Positions 3,701 through 38,611 of a stretch of DNA of 64,000 bases are shown one piece after another (positions within the stretch are counted from its first letter, which is position 1; every line of letters starts with the position of its first letter). Source of the stretch: Pristiophorus japonicus (lineage: Eukaryota); NCBI RefSeq assembly GCF_044704955.1, contig NW_027252668.1:4464001-4528000 (forward strand). Direction: 5' to 3'. Below the pieces are notes generated by a model, which was given only the letters and a program-made list of their open reading frames with translations, did not search any database and was not told the DNA's origin. The position numbers were made by a program, and so were the translations under genes.

Positions 3701-5170
3701 TTCTTATATTGTGGGTGTCTGGTATATGAATGTGGATTGACTCTGTATCTGCCCATTTCTGGTATGTGGATGAGCGTTTTACTGTGTGTGTCAGTTTCTA
3801 ATACGAGAGTGTGGGTTTTATCCTGTACCTGTCAATTTCTGGTAATTGCCTGTGGGTTTCATTCTGTATCTTTCCATTCCTGGTGTGTGAGTGTGTGTGT
3901 TTTGTGCTCTATCTGTCCATCTCTGTTACGTGAATGTGAGCTCTACTTCATACCCGTCATTCTCCAGTATGTTAGTATTGTTTTACTGTGTACCACCAAT
4001 TCCTGGTAGGGTATTCGTTTTACTTTCTGTCAATTTTTGTTATGGAGGTGAGTGTTTATGCTGAATCTGTCAGTCTCTGGTAAATGAGTCTGAGTTTCAC
4101 TCTGTATCTATCTGTCTCTGGTATGTGAGTGTTGGCCTTTCTCTGTATCTCTCCATTTCTGTTATGGGAGTCTGGGTTTTATTCTGTACCTGTCAAGTTC
4201 TGATGTGTGATTGTGGGCCTTACTCTACACTTGCCAGTTTCTGCTTAATTGAGTGGGCTTTTCTTTGTACCTGTCAGTTTCTGCTATGGAAGAGATGTCT
4301 TTACTCTGTACCTGTCAAGTACTGATAAGTGAGTATGGCATTTCACTGTGTCTGTCAATTTATGTTATGGGAATGTGGATTTTAATGTCAGCCTCTGATA
4401 TGTGAGTGTGGGTTTTATACTATATCTCAGCCTCTGATATGCGAGTGTGGGTTTTATACTGTATCCTCAGTCTCTGATGTGCGAGTGTGTGTATTATTCT
4501 GTACCTGTCAGGTTTTGGTATGTGTGTTGAGGTTTAATCTGTGCCTCTAAGTTTCTGCTATGTTGGTCTGGGTTTAATCTGTACCTATTTGTTCCTGCTA
4601 CTTGATTGTGTGTTTTAGTCTGTACCTGTCAGTTCCTGCTGTGAGAGTGTGGAATTTACTCTGTATCTGGTATGTGAATGTGAGGATCAATTTTACTTTT
4701 TACTTATATTTCTCTGATATGGGAGTGAAGATTTTGCCTTCTACCTTCATTTTTCTGGTGTGTGCGTGTGGGTTTTACTCTGCCCCTATCAGTTTCTGCG
4801 ATGCAAGTACCAATTTTACTTACTGCCTTTCAGTTTTTGGATATGTGCACATGGGATTTACACTTTACCGGTCACTCTCTGGTGTGCAAGTGCGGATTTT
4901 ATTCTGTTACTGTCACTTTCATGTATGTGTGTGTGTGTGTTGTATACTGTATGTGTCAGTCTATGGTACAGGAATGTGGGTTTTATTCTGCACCTGTCAT
5001 CTTCTGCTATGATCTGGGGGTTAAATACTGAATCCGTCAGATTCTGAAACTTGAATATGGCTTTTGCTCTGTACCCATCAGCTTCTGATATGAGAGTACG
5101 ATTTATACTATCTATTTGTTATTTGTTCCGATAGGGGTTTTATTCTCTACCTGCCAGTTTCTGGCAAGTG
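3700..5170. repeat. Degenerate about 40-bp satellite (TATGTGAGTGTGGGTTTTATTCTGTACCTGTCAGTTTCTGG-like)
   Basis: Recurring GTGAGTGTGGG...CTGTACCTGTCAGTTTCTG motif at about 40-bp spacing; same family as later arrays. Confidence 0.8.
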
Positions 5171-6420: not shown

Positions 6421-6550
6421 CCAATTTACTTTTATCAGAATCTGAACAAAGGAACTGGGCCTGGGGGGAAAGGACAGAGAATGATTAAAGCTGGGAGCCT
6501 TGTCCCTTGGAGATGCTCAATTTGGGATCATCCGTGCAGGGTGTTTACAT

Positions 6551-7245
6551 AACATAAGAACATAAGAATTAGGAATCTAGCCCCTCGAGCCTGCTCCGCC
6601 ATTCAAAAAGATCATGGCTGATCTGGCCGTGGACTCAGCTCCACTTACCCGCCCGCTCCCCATAACCCTTAATTCCCTTATTGGTTAAAAATCTATCTAT
6701 CTGTGATTTGAATACATTCAATGAGTTAGTCTCAACTGCTTCCTTGGGCAGAGATTTCCACAGATTCACAACCCTCTGGCAGAAGAAATTCCTTCTCAAC
6801 TCGGTTTCAAATTGGCTCCCCCGTATTTTGAGGCTGTGCCCCCGAGTTCTAGTCTTCCCGACCAGTGGAAACAACCTCTCCGCCTCTATCTTGTCTATCC
6901 CTTTCATTATTTTAAATGTTTCTAGAAGATCAGCCCTCATCCTTCTGAACTCCAACGAGTAAAGACCCAGTCTACTCAATCTATCATCATAAGGTAACCC
7001 CCTCATCTCCAGAATCAGCCTAGTGAATCGTCTCTGCACTCTCTCCAAGGCTAGTATATCTTTCCTTAAGTAAGGTGACCATAACTGCACGCAGTACTCC
7101 AGATACGGCCTCACCAATACCCTATACAGTTGCAGCAAGACCTCCCTGCTTTTGTACTCCATCCCTCTCACAATGAAGGCCAGCATTCCATTCGCCTTCC
7201 TGATTACCTGCTGCACCTGCAAACTAACATTTTGGGATTCATGCA
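6551..7245 (-). mobile_element. CR1 LINE 3' part, interrupted by the Tx1 stack; resumes at 14395-14450
   Basis: Tail (CATAAGAA)n at 6551; protein LHESQNVSLQVQQVIRKANGML...RVVNLWKSLP; collinear with the uninterrupted copy at 26447-27693; absent from paralogous site near 38940. Confidence 0.93.
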
Positions 7246-9535
7246 ATTTGATCCGATTTTTGTACGCCGCCGCGGAGTGTCTGATTAAGGTTAACGGGTC
7301 CTTGACGGCGCCCCTTCGCTTTAGGAGAGGGGTGCGCCAGGGATGCCCCATGTCCGGCCAGTTATATGCCATCTGCGTGGAGCCTTTCCTGCGCCTCCTG
7401 CGGACGAGGTTGACGGGACTGGCTCTGCAAGGGCCGGGCGTGGAGGTCGTCCTCTCGGCTTACGCCGATGACGTGCTCCTCGCGATAGAGGATCCCGCTG
7501 ACCTGCGGAGGATGCGTGAGTGCCAGGAGATTTACTCGGCCGCGTCCTCCGCCAGGATCAACTGGGAGAAATGTTCCGGAATCTTGGTGGGTCAGTGGCG
7601 GGTGGACTCCCTGCCGGAGGAGCTCAGGCCTTTTGCCTGGAGCACGACCCATCTCCTCTATCTGGGAGTCTACCTTAGCCCCGACGAGGGAGCCTGGCCG
7701 GCGAACTGGCAGGAGCTGGAGGCCAAGGTCGCCGCTCGCCTAGGGCGCTGGACAGGACTGCTCCGAGTGCTGTCCTACAGGGGTCGAGCGCTAGTCATAA
7801 ACCAGCTGGTGGCCGCAATGCTGTGGTACCGGTTGGTCACTTTGACCCCTCCCCCTGCGTTTGTCGCCAAGATACAGAAGAAGCTGGTGGACTTCTTCTG
7901 GAACAACAGGAAAAACTGGGTCTCTGCCGCGGTCTTGAGTCTCCCGCTTGAGGAGGGCGGTCAGTCGTTGGTGTGCGTCAGCGCCCAGCTCGCGACTTTC
8001 CGTCTTCAGACCCTGCAGAGATACCTTTACGTCGAGCCCCCTCCTAGGTGGTGCGCTCTGGCGAGGTATTTCTTCCGCCAGCAGCTCGACCTCAACTATG
8101 ACACGCAGCTCCTGTTTGTGAACTTGGGGGGTGCCAGGACCGCCCTCCGGGAGCTGCCTGTCTTTTACAGGGAACTCATCAGGGTCTGGAACAAAGTCTC
8201 CACCAAGCGCAGCTCTCCGCCGGCTGGAGTGGCGGCTGTCCTGCAGGAACCGCTGCTCGGGAATCCGTACCTCCACGGCCGAGGTTTTATGTGGCGGTCG
8301 GAAGAGAGGGCTGTGGCTGGTGAGGTGACCAGGGTCAGGGACCTGCTCGATGGCGGAGGAGCGGGCTGGATGGCGCCAGACACGCTGGCGCGGCGCCTAA
8401 ATTCTGCCAACGTCCGCCACGCGGCCGATGCCATCGAGTCGCTAAAAACAGCTCTGGGCCCTGACTCCGTTAGGTGCATCGAGGAGGCTCAAGCACGTGG
8501 GGAGATCCCGTCCGAACTGACCCCCGTCCGGACGGAATTCCTCATCGGCGCCAAACCCCGGAACCTCCCTCGGGGGCCGGCGCCTCACAACTTGAGCCGC
8601 CTCGGGGAAATCCCCTCTGTGCCTTTCAGTTCCGCGCGGAGGGGTTTCCTGTACGGGCTGCTCCTGCACACCCTCAACTTTGCCATCCTCGCCGGCCGTC
8701 CGGACACGCCATGGCGTACCATCTTGCCGTCCGGAGGAGGCGGGGGTCCCCGATGGAGGGCACTCTACGCAGGGGTCCTCCCACTATTCATCGGGGGCTT
8801 GGCCTGGAGGATGGTGCACGGAGCAGTGCCGTGCAATAAATTTTTAAGCCGGTTCACGGACTCCCAGGCTGCCTGCAATTTCTGCGGTCTGGAAGAGTCC
8901 GTGTTCCATGTTTTTATGGAATGCACAAGGTGGCAGCCCCTGTTTTATTATTTGAAGGGGCTGCTCCTGAAATTCTGGGTGCACTTCAGTCCCACTCTCC
9001 TGATCTTTGGGCACCCTGTGCGGAGGGGAGTGGGTAGGTCCGAAGGCCTCCTCGTAGGACTGCTCCTGGGCACGGCCAAGGGTGCCATCAGCCGGTCCAG
9101 GCAGCGGGCGGTCGAGGGGGTCGTTCAACCTGACTGCCTGCCTCTCTTCCGCTCTTACATCCGGTCCAGGGTGTCCTTGGAGATGGAGCACGCGGTGTCT
9201 ACCGGTACGCTCGCGGCCTTCCGCGAGAGGTGGGCACCGGAGGGACTGGAGTGCATCATCACGCCCGGCAACCAAATTTTAATTTGATTTTACGTTTTAA
9301 AGTTAATTTGTTTTAATTGCCGGTGCTTTTAGTGTCCCCTTCCCTTTTATAGGGGGCACTGGGGAAAAATTGTGATTTTAGTGCCAAAAAAAAAACAAAA
9401 AAAAAAGAAAAACACAAAAAAAAAAGAAAAAAAAAGGGGGGAAAAAAAAAGGGCCTTGTAAATGTCTGGAGTGTCACCCAGGTCGGGTGGCACCGTTTAA
9501 TGTTTTATGTTTTGCAGGTGAACTCCAAAAAGAGT
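7246..9535 (+). mobile_element. Tx1-clade (L1 group) non-LTR retrotransposon, 5'-truncated copy 1; ORF2 remnant open to 9287
   Basis: RGVRQGCPMSGQLY and AYADD RT motifs, YLGV, GRALVINQL, C-terminal CNFC...H...C zinc knuckle; no endonuclease; structured 3' UTR. Confidence 0.88.
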
Positions 9536-9543
9536 TTCATGCA

Positions 9544-11831
9544 ATTTGATCCGATTTTTGTACGCCGCCGCAGAGTGTCTGATTAAGGTTAACGGGTCCT
9601 TGACGGCGCCCCTTCGCTTTAGGAGAGGGGTGCGCCAGGGATGCCCCATGTCCGGCCAGTTATACGCCGTTTGCGTGGAGCCTTTCCTGCGCCTCTTGCG
9701 GACGAGGTTGACGGCACTGGCTCTGCAAGGGCCGGGCGTGGAGGTCGTCCTCTCGGCTTACGCCGATGACGTGCTCCTCGCGATAGAGGATCCCGCTGAC
9801 CTGCGGAGGATGCGTGAGTGCCAGGAGATTTACTCGGCCGCGTCCTCCGCCAGGATCAACTGGGAGAAATGTTCCGGACTCCTGGTGGGTCAGTGGCGGG
9901 TGGACTCTCTGCCGGAGGAGCTCAGGCCTTTTGCCTGGAGCACGACCCATCTCCTCTATCTGGGAGTCTACCTTAGCCCCGACGAGGGAGCCTGGCCGGC
10001 GAACTGGCAGGAGCTGGAGGCCAAGGTCGCCGCTCGCCTACGGCGCTGGACAGGACTGCTCCGAGTGCTGTCCTACAGGGGTCGAGCGCTAGTCATAAAC
10101 CAGCTGGTGGCCGCAATACTGTGGTACCGGCTGGTCACTTTGACCCCTCCCCCTGCGTTTGTTGCCAAGATACAGAAGAAGCTGGTGGACTTCTTCTGGA
10201 ACAACAGGAAGCACTGGGTCTCTGCTGCGGTCTTGAGTCTCCCGCTTGAGGAGGGCGGTCAGTCGTTGGTGTGCGTCAGCGCCCAGCTCGCGACTTTCCG
10301 TCTTCAGACCCTGCAGAGATACCTTTACGTCGAGCCCCCTCCTAGGTGGTGTGCTCTGGCGAGATATTTCTTCCGCCAGCAGCGCGACCTCAATTATGAC
10401 ACGCAGCTCCTGTTTGTGAACTTGGGGGGTGCCAGGACCGCCCTCCGGGAGCTGCCTGTCTTTTACAGGGAACTCATCAGGGTCTGGAACAAAGTCTCCA
10501 CCAAGCGCAGCTCTCCGCCGGCTGGAGTGGCGGCCGTCCTGCAGGAACCGCTGCTCGGGAATCCGTACCTCCACGGCCGAGGTTTTATGTGGCGGTCGGA
10601 AGAGAGGGCTGTGGTTGGTGAGGTGACCAGGGTCAGGGACCTGCTCGATGGCGGAGGAGCGGGCTGGATGGCGCCAGACACGCTGGCGCGGTGCCTAAAT
10701 TCTGCCAACGTCCGCCACGCGGCCGATGCCATCGAGTCGCTAAAAACAGCTCTGGGCCCTGACTCCGTTAGGTGCATCGAGGAGGCTCAAGCATGTGGGG
10801 AGATCCCGTCCGAACTGACCCCCGTCCGGACGGAATTCCTCATCGGCGCCAAACCCCGGAACCTCCCTCGGGGGCCGGCGCCTCACAACTTGAGCCGCCT
10901 CGGGGAAATACCCTCCGCGCCTTTCAGTTCCGCGCGGAGGGGTTTCCTGTACGGGCTGCTCCTGCACACTCTCAACTTTGCCATCCTCGCCGGCCGTCCG
11001 CACACGCCATGGCGTACCATCTTGCCGTCCGGAGGAGGCGGGGGTCCCCGATGGAGGGCACTCTACGCAGGGGTCCTCCCACTATTCATCAGGGACTTGA
11101 CCTGGAGGGTGGTGCAAGGAGCAGTGCCGTGCAACAAATTTTTAAGCCGGTTCACGGACTCCCAGGCCGCCTGCAATTTCTGCGGTCTGGAGGAGTCCGT
11201 GTTCCATGTTTTTATTGAGTGCACGAGGTTGCAGCCCCTGTTCCATTATTTGAAGGGGCTGCTCCTGAAATTCTGGCTGCACTTCAGTCCCACTCTCCTG
11301 ATCTTTGGGCACCCTGTGCGGAGGGGAGCGGGTAGGTCCGAAGGCCTCCTCGTAGGACTGCTCCTGGGCACGGCCAAGGGTGCCATCAGCCGGTCCAGGC
11401 AGCGGGCGGTCGAGGGGGTCGTTCAACCTGACTGCCTGCCTCTCTTCCGCTCTTACATCCGGTCCAGGGTGTCCTTGGAGATGGAGCACGCGGTGTCCAC
11501 CGGTACGCTCGCGGCCTTCCGCGAGAGGTGGGCACCGGAGGGACTGGAGTGCATCATCACGCCCGGCAACCAAATTTTAATTTGATTTTACGTTTTTAAG
11601 TTTAATTTGTTTTAATTGCCGGAGCTTTTAGTGTCCCCCTTCCCTTTTATAGGGGGCACTGGGGAAAATTGTGAATTTAGTGCCCCAAAAAAAAAAACCA
11701 AAAAAAGAAAAACACAAAAATAAAAAAAAAAGGGGGGAAAAAAAAAAGAGCCTTGTAAATGTCTGGAGTGTCACCCAGGTCGGGTGGCACCGTTTAATGT
11801 TTTATGTTTTCGCAGGTAAACTCAAAAGAGT
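9544..11831 (+). mobile_element. Tx1-clade retrotransposon, 5'-truncated copy 2; ORF2 remnant open to 11585
   Basis: Same motifs and same 5' junction (TTCATGCAATTTGATCCGA) as copy 1, with private substitutions. Confidence 0.88.
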
Positions 11832-11839
11832 TTCATGCA

Positions 11840-14108
11840 ATTTGATCCGATTTTTGTACGCCGCCGCGGAGTGTCTGATTAAGGTTAACGGGTCCTTGAC
11901 GGCGCCCCTTCGCTTTAGGAGAGGGGTGCGCCAGGGATGCCCCATGTCCGGCCAGTTATACGCCGTTTGCTTGGAGCCTTTCCTGCGCCTCTTGCGGACG
12001 AGGTTGACGGGACTGGCTCTGCAAGGGCCGGGCGTGGAGTTCGTCCTCTCGGCTTACGCCGATGATGTGCTCCTCGCGGTAGAGGATCCCGCTGACCTGC
12101 GGAGGATGCGTGAGTGCCAGGAGATTTACTCGGCTGCGTCCTCCGCCAGGATCAACTGGGAGAAATGTTCCGGACTCCTGGTGGATCAGTGGCGGGTGGA
12201 CTCCCTGCCGGAGGAGCTCAGGCCTTTTGCCTGGAGCACGACCCATCTCCTCTATCTGGGAGTCTACCTTAGCCCCGACGAGGGAGCCTGGCCGGCGAAC
12301 TGGCAGGAGCTGGAGGCCAAGGTCACCGCTCGCCTAGGGCGCTGGACAGGACTGCTCCGAGTGCTGTCCTACAGGGGTCGAGCGCTAGTCATAAACCAGC
12401 TGGTGGCCGCAATGTTGTGGTACCGGCTGGTCACTTTGACCCCTCCCCCTGCGTTTGTCGCCAAGATACAGAAGAAGCTGGTGGACTTCTTCTGGAACAA
12501 CAGGAAGCACTGGGTCTCTGCTGCGGTCTTGAGTCTCCCGCTTGAGGAGGGCAGTCAGTCGTTGGTGTGCGTCAGCGCCCAGCTCGCGACTTTCCGTCTT
12601 CAGACCCTGCAGAGATACCTTTACGTCGAGCCCCCTCCTAGGTGGTGTGCTCTGGCGAGGTATTTCTTCCGCCAGCAGCGCGACCTCAATTATGACACGC
12701 AGCTCCTGTTTGTGAACTTGGGGGGTGCCAGGACCGCCCTCCGGGAGCTGCCTGTCTTTTACAGGGAACTCATCAGGGTCTGGAACAAAATCTCCACCAT
12801 GCGCAGCTCTCCGCCGGCTGGAGTGGCGGCCGTCCTGCAGGAGCCGCTGCTCGGGAATCCGTACCTCCACGACCGAGGGTTTATGTGGCGGTCGGAAGAG
12901 AGGGCTGTGGCTGGTGAGGTGACCAGGGTCAGGGACCTGCTCGATGGTGGAGGAGCGGGCTGGATGGCGCCAGACACGCTGGCGCGGCGCCTAAACTCTG
13001 CCAACGTCCGCCACGCGGCCGATGCCATCGAGTCGCTAAAAACAGCTCTGGGCCCTGACTCCGTTAGGTGCATCGAGGAGGCTCAAGCACGTGGGGAGAT
13101 CCCGTCCGAACTGACCCCCGTCCGGACGGAATTCCTCATCGGCGCCAAACCCCGGAACCTCCCTCGGGGGCCGGCGCCTCACAACTTGAGCCGCCTCGGG
13201 GAAATTCCCTCCGTGCCTTTCAATTCCGCGCGGAGGGGTTTCCTGTACGTGCTGCTCCTGCACACTCTCAACTTTGCCATCCTCGCCGGCCGTCCGGACA
13301 CGCCATGGCATACCATCTTGCCGTCCGGAGGAGGCGGGGGTCCCCGATGGAGGGCACTCTACGCAGGGGTCCTCCCACTATTCATCGGGGACTTGGCCTG
13401 GAGGGTGGTGCACGGAGCAGTGCCGTGCAACAAATTTTTAAGCCGGTTCACGGACTCCCAGGCCGCCTGCAATTTCTGCGGTCTGGAGGAGTCCGTGTTC
13501 CATGTTTTTATCGAGTGCACGAGGTTGCAGCCCCTGTTCCATTATTTGAAGGGGCTGCTCCTGAAATTCTGGCTGCACTTCAGTCCCACTCTCCTGATCT
13601 TTGGGCACCCTGTGCGGAGGGGAGCGGGTAGGTCCGAAGGCCTCCTCGTAGGACTGCTCCTGGGCACGGCCAAGGGTGCCATCAGCCGGTCCAGGCAGCG
13701 GGCGGTCGAGGGGGGTCGTTCAACCTGACTGCCTGCCTCTCTTCCGCTCTTACATCCGGTCCAGGGTGTCCTTGGAGATGGAGCACGCGGTGTCCACTGG
13801 TACGCTCGCGGCCTTTCGCGAGAGGTGGGCACCGGAGGGACTGGAGTGCATCATCACACCCGGCAACCAAATTTTAATTTGATTTTACGTTTTAAAGTTT
13901 AATTTGTTTTCATTGCCGGTGCTTTTAGTGACCCCCTCCCCTTTTATAGGGGGCACTGGAAAAATTTGATTTTAGCGCCCCAAAAAAAAAACAAAAAAAA
14001 AAGGAAAAAAAGAAAAAAAAAAGGGGCCTTGAAAATGTATGCTGTGTCACCCAGGCGGGTGGCATGGTTTTAATGTTTATGGTTATTTTCAGGTAAACTC
14101 AAAAGAGT
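11840..14108 (+). mobile_element. Tx1-clade retrotransposon, 5'-truncated copy 3; +1 frameshift in G-run near 13710
   Basis: Same 5' junction; ORF splits into 11671-13728 and 13676-13882; 3' UTR visibly more divergent than copies 1, 2 and 4. Confidence 0.88.
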
Positions 14109-14116
14109 TTCATGCA

Positions 14117-14394
14117 ATTTGATTTACGTTTTAAAGTTTAATTTGTTTTAATTGCCGGTGCTTTTAGTGTCCCCTTCCCTTTTATAGGGGGCACTGGGGA
14201 AAAATTGTGATTTTAGTGCCCAAAAAAAAAACTACAAAAAAAAAGAAAAACACAAAAAAAATAACCCAAAAAAAGGAAAAAAAGGGCCTTGTAAATGTCT
14301 GGTGTGTCACCCAGGTCGGGTGGCACGGTTTAATGTTTTATGTTTTGCAGGTAGACTCTAATAGAGTTTCATGCACAAGGGCTCCAAAAAGAGT
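14117..14394 (+). mobile_element. Two further Tx1 remnants: 3'-UTR-only copy (14117-14367) and 14-bp 3' tip (14381-14394)
   Basis: 14117-14367 matches the UTR of the long copies; GCTCCAAAAAGAGT is flanked by 13-bp direct repeats TTCATGCACAAGG (14368-14380, 14395-14407). Confidence 0.85.
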
Positions 14395-14571
14395 TTCATG
14401 CACAAGGACCTCCAGGTCCCTCTGCACCGCAGCATGTTGTAATTTCTCCCTATTCAGCCATCTTCACAAAGCAATCCTGCAAAAACATCGGAGGGACGAG
14501 GGAGTGGGAGTTTTTGCTGGGACCGTGCAGGAGTTAATATCTGACAGAAATAGTTCGAGATTAGTTTAGTT

Positions 14572-26446: not shown

Positions 26447-27693
26447 CATAAGAACATAAGAATTAGGAACAGGAGTAGGCCATCTAGCCCCTCGAGCCTG
26501 CTCCGCCACTCAACGAGATCATGGCTGATCTGGCCATGGACTAAGCTCCACTTACCCGCCCGCTCACCATAAGCCTTAATTCCCTTATTGGTTAAAAATC
26601 TATCTATCTGTGATTTGAATACATTCAATGAGCTAGCCTCAACTGCTTCCCTGGGCAGAAAATTCCACAGATTCACAACCCTCTGGGAGAAGAAATTCCT
26701 TCTCAACTCGGTTTTAAATTGGCTCCTTTGTATTTTGAGGCTGTGCCCCCTAGTTCTAGTCTCCCCGACCAGTGGAAACAACCTCTCTGCCTCTATCTTG
26801 TCTATCCCCTCCATTATTTTAAATTTTTCTATAAGATCACCCCTCATCCTTCTGAACTCCAACGAGTAAAGACCCAGTCTACTCAATCTAGCATCATAAG
26901 GTAACCCTCTCATCTCCGGAATCAGCCTAGTGAATCATCTCTGTACCCGCTCCAAAGCCAGTATATCCTTCCTTAAGTAAGGTGACCAAAACTGCACGCA
27001 GTACTCCAGGTGCGGCCTCACCAATACCCTGTACAGTTGCAGTCGGTCCTCCCTGCTTTTGTACTCCATCCCTCTCGCAATGAAGGCCAACATTCCATTC
27101 GCCTTCCTGATTACCTGCTGCACCTGCAAACTAACTTTTTGGGATTCATGCACAAGGACCCCCAAGTCCCTCTGCACCGCAACATGTTGTAATTTCTCCC
27201 CATTCAAATAATATTCCCTTTTACTGTTTTTTTTTCCAAGGTGGATGACCTCACATTTTCCAACATTGTATTCCATCTGCCAAACCTTAGCCCATTCACT
27301 TACCCTCTCTAAATCTCTTTGCAGCCTCTCTGTATCGTCTACACAACCCGCTTTCCCACTAATCTTTGTGTCATCTGCAAATTTTGTTACACTACACTCT
27401 GTCCCCTCTTCCAGGTCATCTATGTATATTGTAAACAGTTGTGGTCCCAGCATCGATCCCTGTGGCACACCACTAACCACTGATTTCCAACCCGAAAAGG
27501 ACCCATTTATCCCGACTCTCTGCTTTCTGTTAGCCAGCCAATTCTCGATCCATGCTAATACATTTCCTCTGACTCCGCGTACCTTTATCTTCTGCAGCAA
27601 CCTTTTGTGTGGCACCTTATCGAATGCCTTTTAGAAATCTAAATACACCACATCCATCGGTACACCTCTATCCACCATGCTCGTTATATCCTC
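26447..27693 (-). mobile_element. CR1 3' fragment carrying an empty Tx1 target site (TTCATGCACAAGG, 27145-27157)
   Basis: ORFs 26935-27615 and 26446-26913; CATAAGAA tail; same subfamily as 6551-7245. Confidence 0.93.
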
Positions 27694-30814: not shown

Positions 30815-31212
30815 ACACAACTATTTTAGTAAAACAATAAATCAAGTGCTCTCTTATTAAAGGGGCATTAAAACAGACAAATTAAACTTTGGTGTTAAAT
30901 GGATCTATTTAAAATTTGGTTCCCGGGGGTGATGATGCACTCCAGTCCCTCTGGCGCCCACCTCTCACGGAAGGCCACGAGCGTACCGGTGAACACCGCG
31001 TGCTCCATTTCCAGGGACACCCTGGCTCGAACATAACCGTGGAAGAGAGGCAGGCAGTCGGGCTGAACACTCCCTCGACCGCCCGCTGCCTGGACCGGTT
31101 AATGGCCACCTTGGCCATGCCCAGGAGCAGTCCTACGAGGAGGCCTTCCGATCTGCCTGCTCCCCTCCGCACAGAGGACCCAAAGATCAGGAGCAGGGGA
31201 CTGAAGTGCAAA
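30815..31212 (-). mobile_element. Older Tx1-related 3' fragment (paralog at about 37625-38022)
   Basis: LHFSPLLLIFG...GLLLGMAKVAINRSRQRAVEG similar to the C-terminus of the stacked element. Confidence 0.85.
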
Positions 31213-36270: not shown

Positions 36271-38611
36271 TGTGCGGGTGTTTAATCTACAGGTCAGTTT
36301 GATCTGTTTCAATGGTGAAGCAGCATCTGATTCTACTGCTCCATGTAAGATTCACAATGTAACTCTTGTACTGTGGACTACTGTGGGACTGACTGCTTCT
36401 GCTGCCTGTGATAATAGCATTGAGGCCAGTTCTGTGTCTCTGCGCTCTGTGAGTGATAATGTACTTACTGTGTGTGGGAAGGAGCTGCCTGCACTGGTTG
36501 ACAGTCCGTGTATGCCAGCAGTGTGGATTGACACTGTGTCAGTGTCTATCTGTTCCTGTGTTTGTGAGTAAGTGAGTGAAAATGGATCTGTCTCTCAGTG
36601 CGATATGTTTGGACTTTGAAACAACATCTTATTGTACTGCTCCAAATGATTGTGGGATTCATAATGTAACTCTGGAAATTCGGATCACTGTGGGACTGAC
36701 AGCTTCTGCTGCCTATGACAATAGGATTGAGACCAGTTTTGTGTCTCTGCGCTCTGTAAGTGATAATATACTTACTGTGAGTGAGAAGGAGCTGACAGCA
36801 CTGTTCCTTGTGTTCCGGGTGGAGGAAAGATCACATTTATTCAGGCTCAGTGAAGTACTTCTCTCTGAGAATAATAATACGAGAACAATATTGGTTATGA
36901 TATGGACAGGTGAGTGGGAGAATATAAAAAATAAAGTTATAATTAACATGTTTGTTTATAATAAAGTAAAGTATCTGGAGGTGGAAACCGCGATACAAAC
37001 AGTGTCATTGTCTGACCTCACTGCAGTACAGTGGCACTCAGATTCTGCACACCAGGTGTGTAGGACGGTTCTATAGTAAGTTATCAGCATCCAGACACAA
37101 CCCAAACCCAGCACTGGTCCATGAATAGGACCACCCGATTCGAACAGTCCAGGTTTATATCTCTTACTCCCATGGGACTACTTGTAAAATTCTGAATCTT
37201 TTCCTGGAATATAACTATAATACCTGGGCTGTACAACAATTGTTTTCAGTCTATTGAAACTGAGTTGAGGGCCTGTGTAGTTAACAGAATGTCACAGAGC
37301 CCAGATCCTGATGCATCTGAGGCAGCGACAGTCTCTCGATCACCAGCAACACGGTTCTGGACAACTCAATGCACCAAAACAAAATAACCGATGCTTGAAA
37401 TGTCTTCTCCCACACTCCTCACCTGGTGCCTGCAATAGATGCACTTTGTGAAACGCCTCACATCCTCACCGTCAGGCTGTGTTTCCACTGTTCACTGTTC
37501 AACAACAACAGATACGGTGAGATTGGAACTGAATCAGGAACATTCACTACTGATTTGGGGAAAGAAAGCAGCAATGATTTGAAAGAGCGAGGTGATTTAC
37601 TTTCACTGTTACCTCACGCTGTATACACAACTATTTTAGGAAAACAATAAATCAAGTGCGCCCTTATTAAAGGGACATTAAAACAGACAAATTAAACTTT
37701 GGCATTAAATGGATCAAATTAAAATTTGGTTCCCGGGGATGATGATGCACTCCAGTCCCTCTGGCGTCCATCTCTCACAGAAGGCCACGAGCGTACCGGT
37801 GAACACTGCGTGCTCCATCTCCAGTGACAACCATGGCTCGAACGTAACCGTGGAAGAGAGGCAGGCAGTCGGGCTGAACACCCTCTCGACCGCCCGCTGC
37901 CTGGACCGGTTAATGGCCACCTTGGCCATGCCCAGAATCAGCCCTATGAGGCGGCCTTCCGATCTGCCCGCTCTCCTCCGCACAGGGGGCCCAAAGATCA
38001 GGAGCGGGGGACTGAAGTGCAAACGATTAACGAGTGTCATCCTTATGCAGGAGCCATCAAGCAAACTCTACCAAGTAACGTTCATTGGTTCATGTGCAAC
38101 GGCCTGCGGAGAACCATGAGATGCTACTGTAAGTACTGCTTACAACCAGAGTCATCAGAGGACCATTTTATCCTCAAGTGGAAAGTAAGAGACTGTCCAC
38201 ACACAGCCCGAGAATGACGTCTCCCTTCCCCCACTCACTCCATGTTCCGGAACTAGTTCCTGCTCCACTCTGCCTCTAACAAACAAACAGCCCCCGATGG
38301 AACTAAACCAGGAACGTTCGCTCCTGGTTAGGAGAGAGAAAGCAGCAATGATTGTAAACAGCAGATTCTGCCCATTCTGTTTCCCTTCCCCCTGGACACA
38401 CACTGTCCACACACAGCCCAAGAATGGCCTCTCCCTCCCCCCCACTCACACCACGCACTGACACTGGTTCTTGCTTCACTCCGCCCCTTTCACACAGCCC
38501 CCGACTCCCCCTCAACTCCCCCCGGACTCAGTGCCGCTCTCTGAGCCCATCTGCGGACACGCTCCCAAAGCGCTGCGCTGCTGTAAGGAGGCTACTGCTC
38601 GCTGCCTTACC

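Follow-up and report, generated by a model that had tools for sequence, protein, structure and literature searches.

The stretch of DNA analysed here, called the window below, is 64,000 nucleotides (nt) long and comes from Pristiophorus japonicus (contig NW_027252668.1, positions 4,464,001 to 4,528,000). Positions 7238-14408 of the window hold a head-to-tail stack of a long interspersed nuclear element (LINE) that appears to belong to the Tx1 clade. The stack is composed of three copies of 2.3 kb, one 259-nt copy and a tip (unit lengths of 2298, 2296, 2277 and 259 nt, plus a tip unit of 27 nt), and it interrupts another LINE, which lies antisense, at the sequence TTCATGCACAAGGA; an empty counterpart of this site is found at position 27145. 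We take the host LINE to be of the CR1 type from its motifs, its profile match being to RVT_1. The features of the locus, in which RT stands for reverse transcriptase, ORF for open reading frame and UTR for untranslated region, are the following:

6547..7237, minus strand: left flank, formed by the 3' portion of the host LINE of CR1 type, recognised from inverted-repeat matches to other copies and matching the empty site at 27145
7238..9535, plus strand: copy 1, with target duplication, putatively inherited 5' junction, 5'-truncated Tx1 ORF2 (RT and zf-RVT; stop at 9287) and 3' UTR
9536..11831, plus strand: copy 2, with the 5' junction of copy 1, a different source haplotype, ORF open to 11585
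11832..14108, plus strand: copy 3, with the 5' junction of copies 1 and 2, a third source haplotype, and a +1 frameshift; flanked by the 15-bp repeat TTCATGCAATTTGAT
7257 (also 9555 and 11851), plus strand: rare T common to copies 1-3, 20 nt from the nick, giving the lower bound of the putative inherited tract
14109..14367, plus strand: copy 4, a unit of 3' UTR alone whose target duplication is short (8-9 nt)
14368..14394, plus strand: tip unit, a 13-nt target duplication and the terminal ~14 nt at the element's 3' end
14395..14451, minus strand: right-hand target copy TTCATGCACAAGGA (read on the plus strand) and the rest of the host LINE
27145..27158, plus strand: unoccupied target site, lying in another copy of CR1 type within the window

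The sequence TTCATGCAATTTGAT starts at 7238, 9536, 11832 and 14109. It is followed by CCGA in units 1-3, where it leads into the reverse transcriptase frame, and by 3' UTR in unit 4. These positions bear out the initial annotation, which had described a common start and ATTTGAT/CCGA junction in copies 1-3, the same opening in copy 4 and a 15-bp repeat on either side of copy 3. The truncated frame of the copies carries RVT_1 and zf-RVT, and the frameshift of copy 3 is due to one additional G in the run of Gs at 13710-13715. The 19-mer TTCATGCAATTTGATCCGA, which constitutes the junction, has three occurrences in the 5.9-Gb assembly, every one in this stack. Since the junction is found here alone, a dispersed non-autonomous subfamily with the truncation of the window was rejected, as was a segmental duplication together with the nearby histone cluster.

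The insertion point falls within the host RT codons for DLGVLVHES, and the empty host copy translates to an RVT_1 protein that contains DLGVLVHESQKVSLQV. Rfam matches were to histone stem-loops only, and the target is therefore not an RNA gene. In the assembly, we counted 18,152 matches to the 3' junction of the element (39 for a control pattern), 6,945 3' junctions running straight into host sequence (exact pattern) and 25,789 exact empty target sites. Among 2,761 exact copies of one common 3' end of the element, 1,988 directly precede TTCATGCA (the remaining 773 were left unexamined), and inserts of the element stop precisely at a single 3' base. Stack units are arranged head to tail with one target-site duplication (TSD) between neighbours, as in R1-type serial insertion. 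The TSD is 13-16 nt long in 37 of 41 stacks, in agreement with the proposal of the initial annotation that each insertion regenerates the target. Among full-length 5' ends (about 5,500 by exact patterns), 4,964 lie behind the 3' end of another unit vs 530 behind GGGA host flank, i.e., ~90% are stacked, and arrays are the rule for full-length copies. Very short solo inserts (units of 18-75 nt) are also frequent, accounting for 9 of the first 30 junction matches on contig C1 (L054-L083). At another locus on this contig (L103, near 11,382,570), the junction is inverted, and two target copies face apart across one 3' tip.

Full-length relatives of the stack element are 7.2 kb long and encode a 699-aa ORF1 and a 1299-aa ORF2. 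The ORF2 of a full-length unit contains APE (PF03372), RT (PF00078) and zf-RVT (PF13966) domains, the last below its curated cut-off, and ORF1 contains a zf-CCHC knuckle (E = 0.004, likewise below the curated cut-off). Over its whole length, ORF2 is identical to the 149-kDa Tx1L protein of Xenopus laevis (YTX2_XENLA) at 641 of 1297 positions (49%), and its best protein matches are turtle, sturgeon and stingray (69%) proteins and proteins named YTX2. The element shows 5' truncation, a TSD and a target-sequence preference, as in the Tx1 clade. From its domains, target preference and Tx1L identity, the element is provisionally assigned to the Tx1 clade of retrotransposons that lack long terminal repeats (non-LTR). 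Its 3' ends (e.g., window 11810-11839) have no poly(A) tail, and the last ~22 nt together with the TSD are predicted to fold into a hairpin in 14 of the 14 commonest 3' variants. The subterminal arm of the hairpin repeats the junction in inverse form, though imperfectly, and a splice-acceptor-like string (T-rich, CAG) is found just upstream. Two loci on different contigs (L024 and L025) both align from element position 4073 and possibly represent a deletion subfamily. In a second organism (read run X8), the element is present (a 690-nt contig with 8 differences in 571 nt), and so is the empty target.

The ORFs of copies 1-3 differ pairwise by 1.9-2.6% over 2038 nt. As the initial annotation had observed, the UTR of copy 3 is far more divergent, its last 85 nt differing by 9.9, 11.0 and 8.6% from those of copies 1, 2 and 4, respectively. 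Taken alone, this contrast is no proof of separate sources, because copies 1 and 2 differ little there (2.4%, or 2 of 83 positions) and the UTR is polymorphic across the family. Compared with other loci, copies 1-3 have no common private variant except a T at +20, which is found in 1 of 44 other loci. Copies 1 and 2 are separated by 19 family-polymorphic differences (12 non-CpG), and copies 2 and 3 by 19 (15 non-CpG), the A-rich tract being dropped from every variant count. A tree was built from the 76 rows left after 8 exact duplicates among 84 units, and the A-rich tract, had been removed; copies 1-3 were joined in 0 of 200 bootstrap trees, and the approximately unbiased (AU) test rejected a single clade for them (p = 0.034). 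The differences shared with the family are 23 synonymous to 7 nonsynonymous, vs 9 to 19 for private differences (p = 0.0013). Because copies 1-3 do not form one clade and their shared differences are rich in synonymous changes, they stem from different source haplotypes, not from plain duplication. The tree, the AU test and the synonymous enrichment thus agree with the serial insertion from different sources that had been proposed at the outset, together with its two predictions on tree topology and synonymous sites. Re-insertion of a local RNA at its own locus was also considered and rejected, since the 3' ends differ.

Shared truncation points are not confined to the window. We parsed 73 regions, mostly the first matches on contig C1 of internal-junction patterns and hence not a census; two loci near 201.9 and 209.7 Mb of C1 and loci resembling mutated host flank were left out. 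No eligible pair was present in 22 of the 73 regions, and one pair was taken from each of the other 51 loci. When the downstream unit (i.e., the resident) was truncated and at least 900 nt long, the unit upstream of it had the same start at 16 of 21 loci, was shorter or a tip at 4 and was longer at 1. The corresponding numbers were 7 same, 1 shorter and 2 longer for residents of 350-900 nt (10 loci), and 7 same, 3 shorter or tip and 10 longer for residents of 100-350 nt (20 loci). Capture of the resident 5' end thus rises with resident length. Other stacks with locus-specific shared truncation, which the initial annotation had suggested looking for, are common, and the independent truncation points expected of R1-type serial insertion are not the rule next to long residents. 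Identical starts between loci amounted to 0 of 210 comparisons for units of at least 900 nt and to 8 of 1275 overall. For long units, an origin of the shared starts in truncation hotspots was therefore rejected; short units do share hotspots. Between element positions 4713 and 4903, at a distance of 2.3-2.5 kb from the 3' end, 5' truncations pile up: 11 of the 71 starts of loci fall there, and only 2 lie further 5'. The window stack starts beside this pile-up, at element position 4922. No strong hairpin that would explain the clustering was found at 4713-4903.

Among the leftmost same-start truncated pairs, 25 of 28 carry at least two non-CpG source-diagnostic differences, and the last 30 nt differ in 24 of 28 and are identical in 4 (between loci, 4.3% are identical). 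Given that crossover within copies should be unable to duplicate the leftmost 5' junction, these pairs would need another cause than crossover. For the same reason, and in view of the 12 non-CpG source-diagnostic differences between copies 1 and 2, the unequal crossover that had been retained as an alternative for these two copies is disfavoured.

In same-start units, source differences are depleted near the 5' junction. At 16 same-start loci, the ratios of observed to expected source differences in successive fifths from 5' to 3' were 0.12, 0.55, 0.54, 0.69 and 0.64, vs 0.90-1.37 at 23 control loci with different starts, and source differences were fewest within the first 150-300 nt. Individual pairs show where the switch takes place. 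In one pair, private variants are common up to +3172 and source differences begin at +3966; other sharp switches, given as shared until/differing from, are at 2336/2453, 2127/2776 and 113/123. In the window, the shared tract extends at least 20 nt from the nick and the switch occurs before element position +124 between copies 1 and 2 and before +236 between copies 2 and 3. At one locus (L111), each of four same-start copies, no two of which have the same 3' end, is preceded by a 29-nt tip; the C7 array shows a 484-nt unit repeated in a like manner. As this tip and this unit were carried along, a short staggered overhang is insufficient. The inherited 5' tract would then be at least 20 nt in the window and often hundreds of nt elsewhere, up to more than 3 kb, sometimes with a whole short unit. 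The initial annotation, according to which the junction forces the truncation point, was right in that the point is apparently inherited from the resident; the few bases it held responsible (GAT/CCGA, a 3-7-nt microhomology on a 13-15-nt overhang) are not consistent with tracts of at least 20 to more than 3,000 nt.

The stack consists of copies from different sources that have one 5' junction in common, probably because each was reverse-transcribed at the target duplication beside a resident and then paired with the resident's 5' part. The sequences show a single target, a regenerated TSD, one 5' junction combined with many 3' sources, 5'-polar sharing and a dependence on resident length. The duplication of 13-16 nt provides a fresh target at each junction. 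The endonuclease would nick the bottom strand at flank^TTCATGCA in the TSD to the left of the resident, and cDNA would be primed at this nick by target-primed reverse transcription (TPRT) of RNA from an outside source. The cDNA would then anneal to, or invade, the top strand of the downstream resident, mostly in its first few hundred nt, and synthesis would copy back across the resident's 5' junction, plus any short unit between, to the flank. The product would have the 5' part of the resident and a new 3' part, and arrays would extend mainly leftwards. Two variants, between which sequence cannot separate, may be envisaged: either the cut in the top strand lies deep inside the resident, which lengthens the TSD, or an uncut duplex is invaded by the cDNA in a manner resembling synthesis-dependent strand annealing (SDSA). 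Homologous completion of the 5' end occurs with R2Bm, and chimeric L1s were reportedly recovered in culture by Gilbert et al. in 2005.

Leftward growth is consistent with the counts of private variants (75 in leftmost vs 131 in rightmost units; Wilcoxon p = 0.032). The insertion order proposed initially, i.e., tip, UTR copy, copy 3 and then copies 2 and 1, is fixed in part; the order of tip and copy 4 and that of copies 1 and 2 are not, because internal junctions are used as insertion sites too (L116). Unequal exchange would then amplify some arrays secondarily. Some units are exact duplicates, some have 3' tracts in common and in one array three units form a higher-order repeat, which indicates that unequal exchange reworks some arrays and that whole-unit duplication takes place too; exact duplicates could also be assembly errors. 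Arrays of at least nine 7.2-kb units are found on C15 (L034-L040) and C7 (L041-L046), and the three-unit higher-order repeat of the C15 array has an identity of 99.3%.

A number of observations weigh against this reading. It draws on the mosaic pattern in one assembly, with most of the sampled loci on one contig. In the window, it is a single base, the T at +20, that points to a tract reaching past the TSD. The gradient of source differences is shallower in the leftmost pairs (0.30, 0.38 and 0.64, with 0.71 in the last 80 nt) and its plateau stays below 1, and five full-length pairs with the same 5' end show no gradient (0.38, 0.57, 0.36, 0.40 and 0.53). Shared private variants lie both 5' (24) and 3' (13) of the first source difference, where a uniform distribution would place 14.6 on the 5' side. 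Some arrays (C7 and C15) contain exact duplicates and units with tracts in common internally or at the 3' end, and 4 of 75 same-5' pairs differ by at most one base. The age gradient is not significant by a sign test (9 vs 4, p = 0.27). The rows of the tree are themselves mosaics, and the bootstrap had not settled.

Several of these observations would be accommodated if whole units were duplicated first, by slippage or exchange at the 14-nt TSD, and their 3' parts replaced afterwards by cDNA primed downstream or by ectopic gene conversion. Exact duplicates exist, internal tracts resembling conversion are seen (C15 units 3 vs 6) and the ratio of observed to expected differences levels off at just ~0.6, all of which speaks for such a sequence of events. 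We nevertheless regard it as unlikely, although it survives better than the other alternatives. Nearly all duplicates would have to be overwritten, to judge from the last 30 nt of the leftmost pairs. Ectopic conversion predicts depletion at both ends and the differences peak at the 3' end; in addition, the rightmost units appear older, not younger, and the dependence on resident length would be left unexplained.

Less likely still is that a normal staggered cut of 13-15 nt carries a few element bases (GAT/CCGA) and that microhomology alone fixes the truncation of each independent copy. In its favour, the switches in the window are close to the junction, the first 150-300 nt hold the fewest source differences and the 15-nt TSD of copy 3 ends in GAT, which matches the element. 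The shared rare T at +20, however, lies outside a TSD of 13-16 nt, common private variants elsewhere extend over hundreds to thousands of nt, entire short units are carried (L111 and C7) and capture tracks the length of the resident.

DNA-templated repair, by which a nicked junction invades another genomic copy at the TSD, copies its 3' end and switches to the resident without any reverse transcription, predicts the same mosaic, and sequence alone cannot name the template. We hold it to be very unlikely, given that the first invasion beside a truncated resident would have ~14 nt of homology to work with, that APE and RT frames are intact in the family and that inserts end at one precise 3' base. 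The simple view that one truncated copy was multiplied by tandem duplication or unequal crossover and that the products then diverged neutrally accounts for identical starts, and perhaps for the three-unit higher-order repeats of C15 that have no scored differences, but has scarcely any credibility for copies 1-3, with their different family haplotypes, their lack of a common private variant beyond +20 and their synonymous-rich differences, or for leftmost 5' junctions. One clade with private variants common along the length, as duplication would leave, was not observed in the window and was observed in a minority of other pairs. An assembly artefact is the least credible of all, for although the contig is rich in repeats and no public contig crosses the junction (contigs from four public read runs, none of which bridges copies 1 and 2, are short and broken in the repeat and thus uninformative either way), the copies are 1.9-2.6% divergent and carry distinct family haplotypes, and a like architecture is found at dozens of loci.

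Beyond the preferred reading of the stack, i.e., reverse transcription at the TSD followed by pairing with the resident, lies a broader proposal, to which we give an even chance: that recombination with its own resident is the normal completion of integration for this LINE-parasitising LINE, so that most cDNAs beside a long resident are captured and thousands of loci extend themselves. If so, loci would keep one 5' end, which in full-length stacks includes ORF1 and the promoter region, and gain new 3' ends, providing a built-in engine for mosaic LINE evolution and for satellites derived from the element, and a genome-wide natural record of 5' junction formation.

The remainder of the window contains two histone gene clusters (16.7-20.6 and 43.2-47.0 kb) with eight histone 3' stem-loops (Rfam), a 30-bp variable number tandem repeat of 38 copies (1136-2271) and a 41-bp satellite (21.7-36 and 48.7-58.2 kb), one array of which has ~142 copies. 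Older related Tx1 fragments with 86-88% identity are found on the minus strand at 30903-31210 and 37713-38021, the former without a flanking target.

The formation of the 5' junction and the second strand of LINEs is still poorly understood, and a single assembly suffices to map the many natural events in these stacks, which record how much resident DNA was taken up. The stacks also offer a direct route to mosaic LINE lineages with an old 5' end and a new 3' end, and to satellites derived from transposable elements (TEs). In a study of TE dimers arising from double insertion, distinct 5' truncations were the mark of non-LTR dimers (PMC5932611). For the stack family, this rule of TE annotation would be overturned, as identical 5' truncations in tandem need not signal duplication. 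Within the literature searched, the target of the stack element, 14 nt of a conserved RT motif belonging to an abundant LINE, adds a class of host that is new for the site specificity of Tx1. The search returned no CR1-targeting Tx1 and no routine inheritance of 5' junctions in LINE stacks; it did not extend to Repbase Reports and most subscription papers, so a described family may exist. As far as searched, serial stacking is known, as is cDNA-DNA pairing, and their routine combination, giving locus-specific 5' ends genome-wide, was not found.

Tx1 families target other transposons, and Tx1L of X. laevis inserts into Tx1D (PMC4494074). The stack element resembles Tx1L in its ORF2 (49% identical, with APE, RT and zf-RVT), in the zinc knuckle of ORF1 and in inserting into another TE. 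In contrast, the target of Tx1L is a DNA transposon and that of the stack element an RT-coding site of a CR1-type LINE, and the accessible text of PMC4494074 describes no arrays with inherited 5' junctions for Tx1L. The same source reports crocodilian Tx1-Mar and SINEU-3, in which tandem SINEU-3 copies sandwich a TSD and are read as sequential insertions. Tx1-driven insertion into an abundant TE and tandem copies around a TSD are thus features in common; the SINEU-3 target is Mariner-N4, and neither 5'-junction inheritance nor a mosaic analysis appears in the accessible text (PMC4494074). The tandem R1 arrays of Drosophila rDNA are similar in that a site-specific LINE leaves a 14-bp TSD between units, inserts at the 5' TSD of the resident and is later amplified by unequal exchange (PMC2718515). 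R1 is directed to a single target gene family, whereas the stack element occupies thousands of dispersed sites, at which independent insertions mostly share their truncation. Also comparable are 22 templated insertions of L1, ascribed to pairing of cDNA with nearby DNA and having templates mostly shorter than 250 bp (bioRxiv 10.1101/2024.08.27.596794). There, too, the nascent cDNA would quit its RNA to base-pair with homologous DNA close by in an SDSA-like manner, duplicating sequence on the target side. Such events are rare for L1 in the available text of that preprint, in contrast to the stack element, for which we propose them as the usual fate of cDNA beside a long resident, in the germ line and with tracts of up to several kb.

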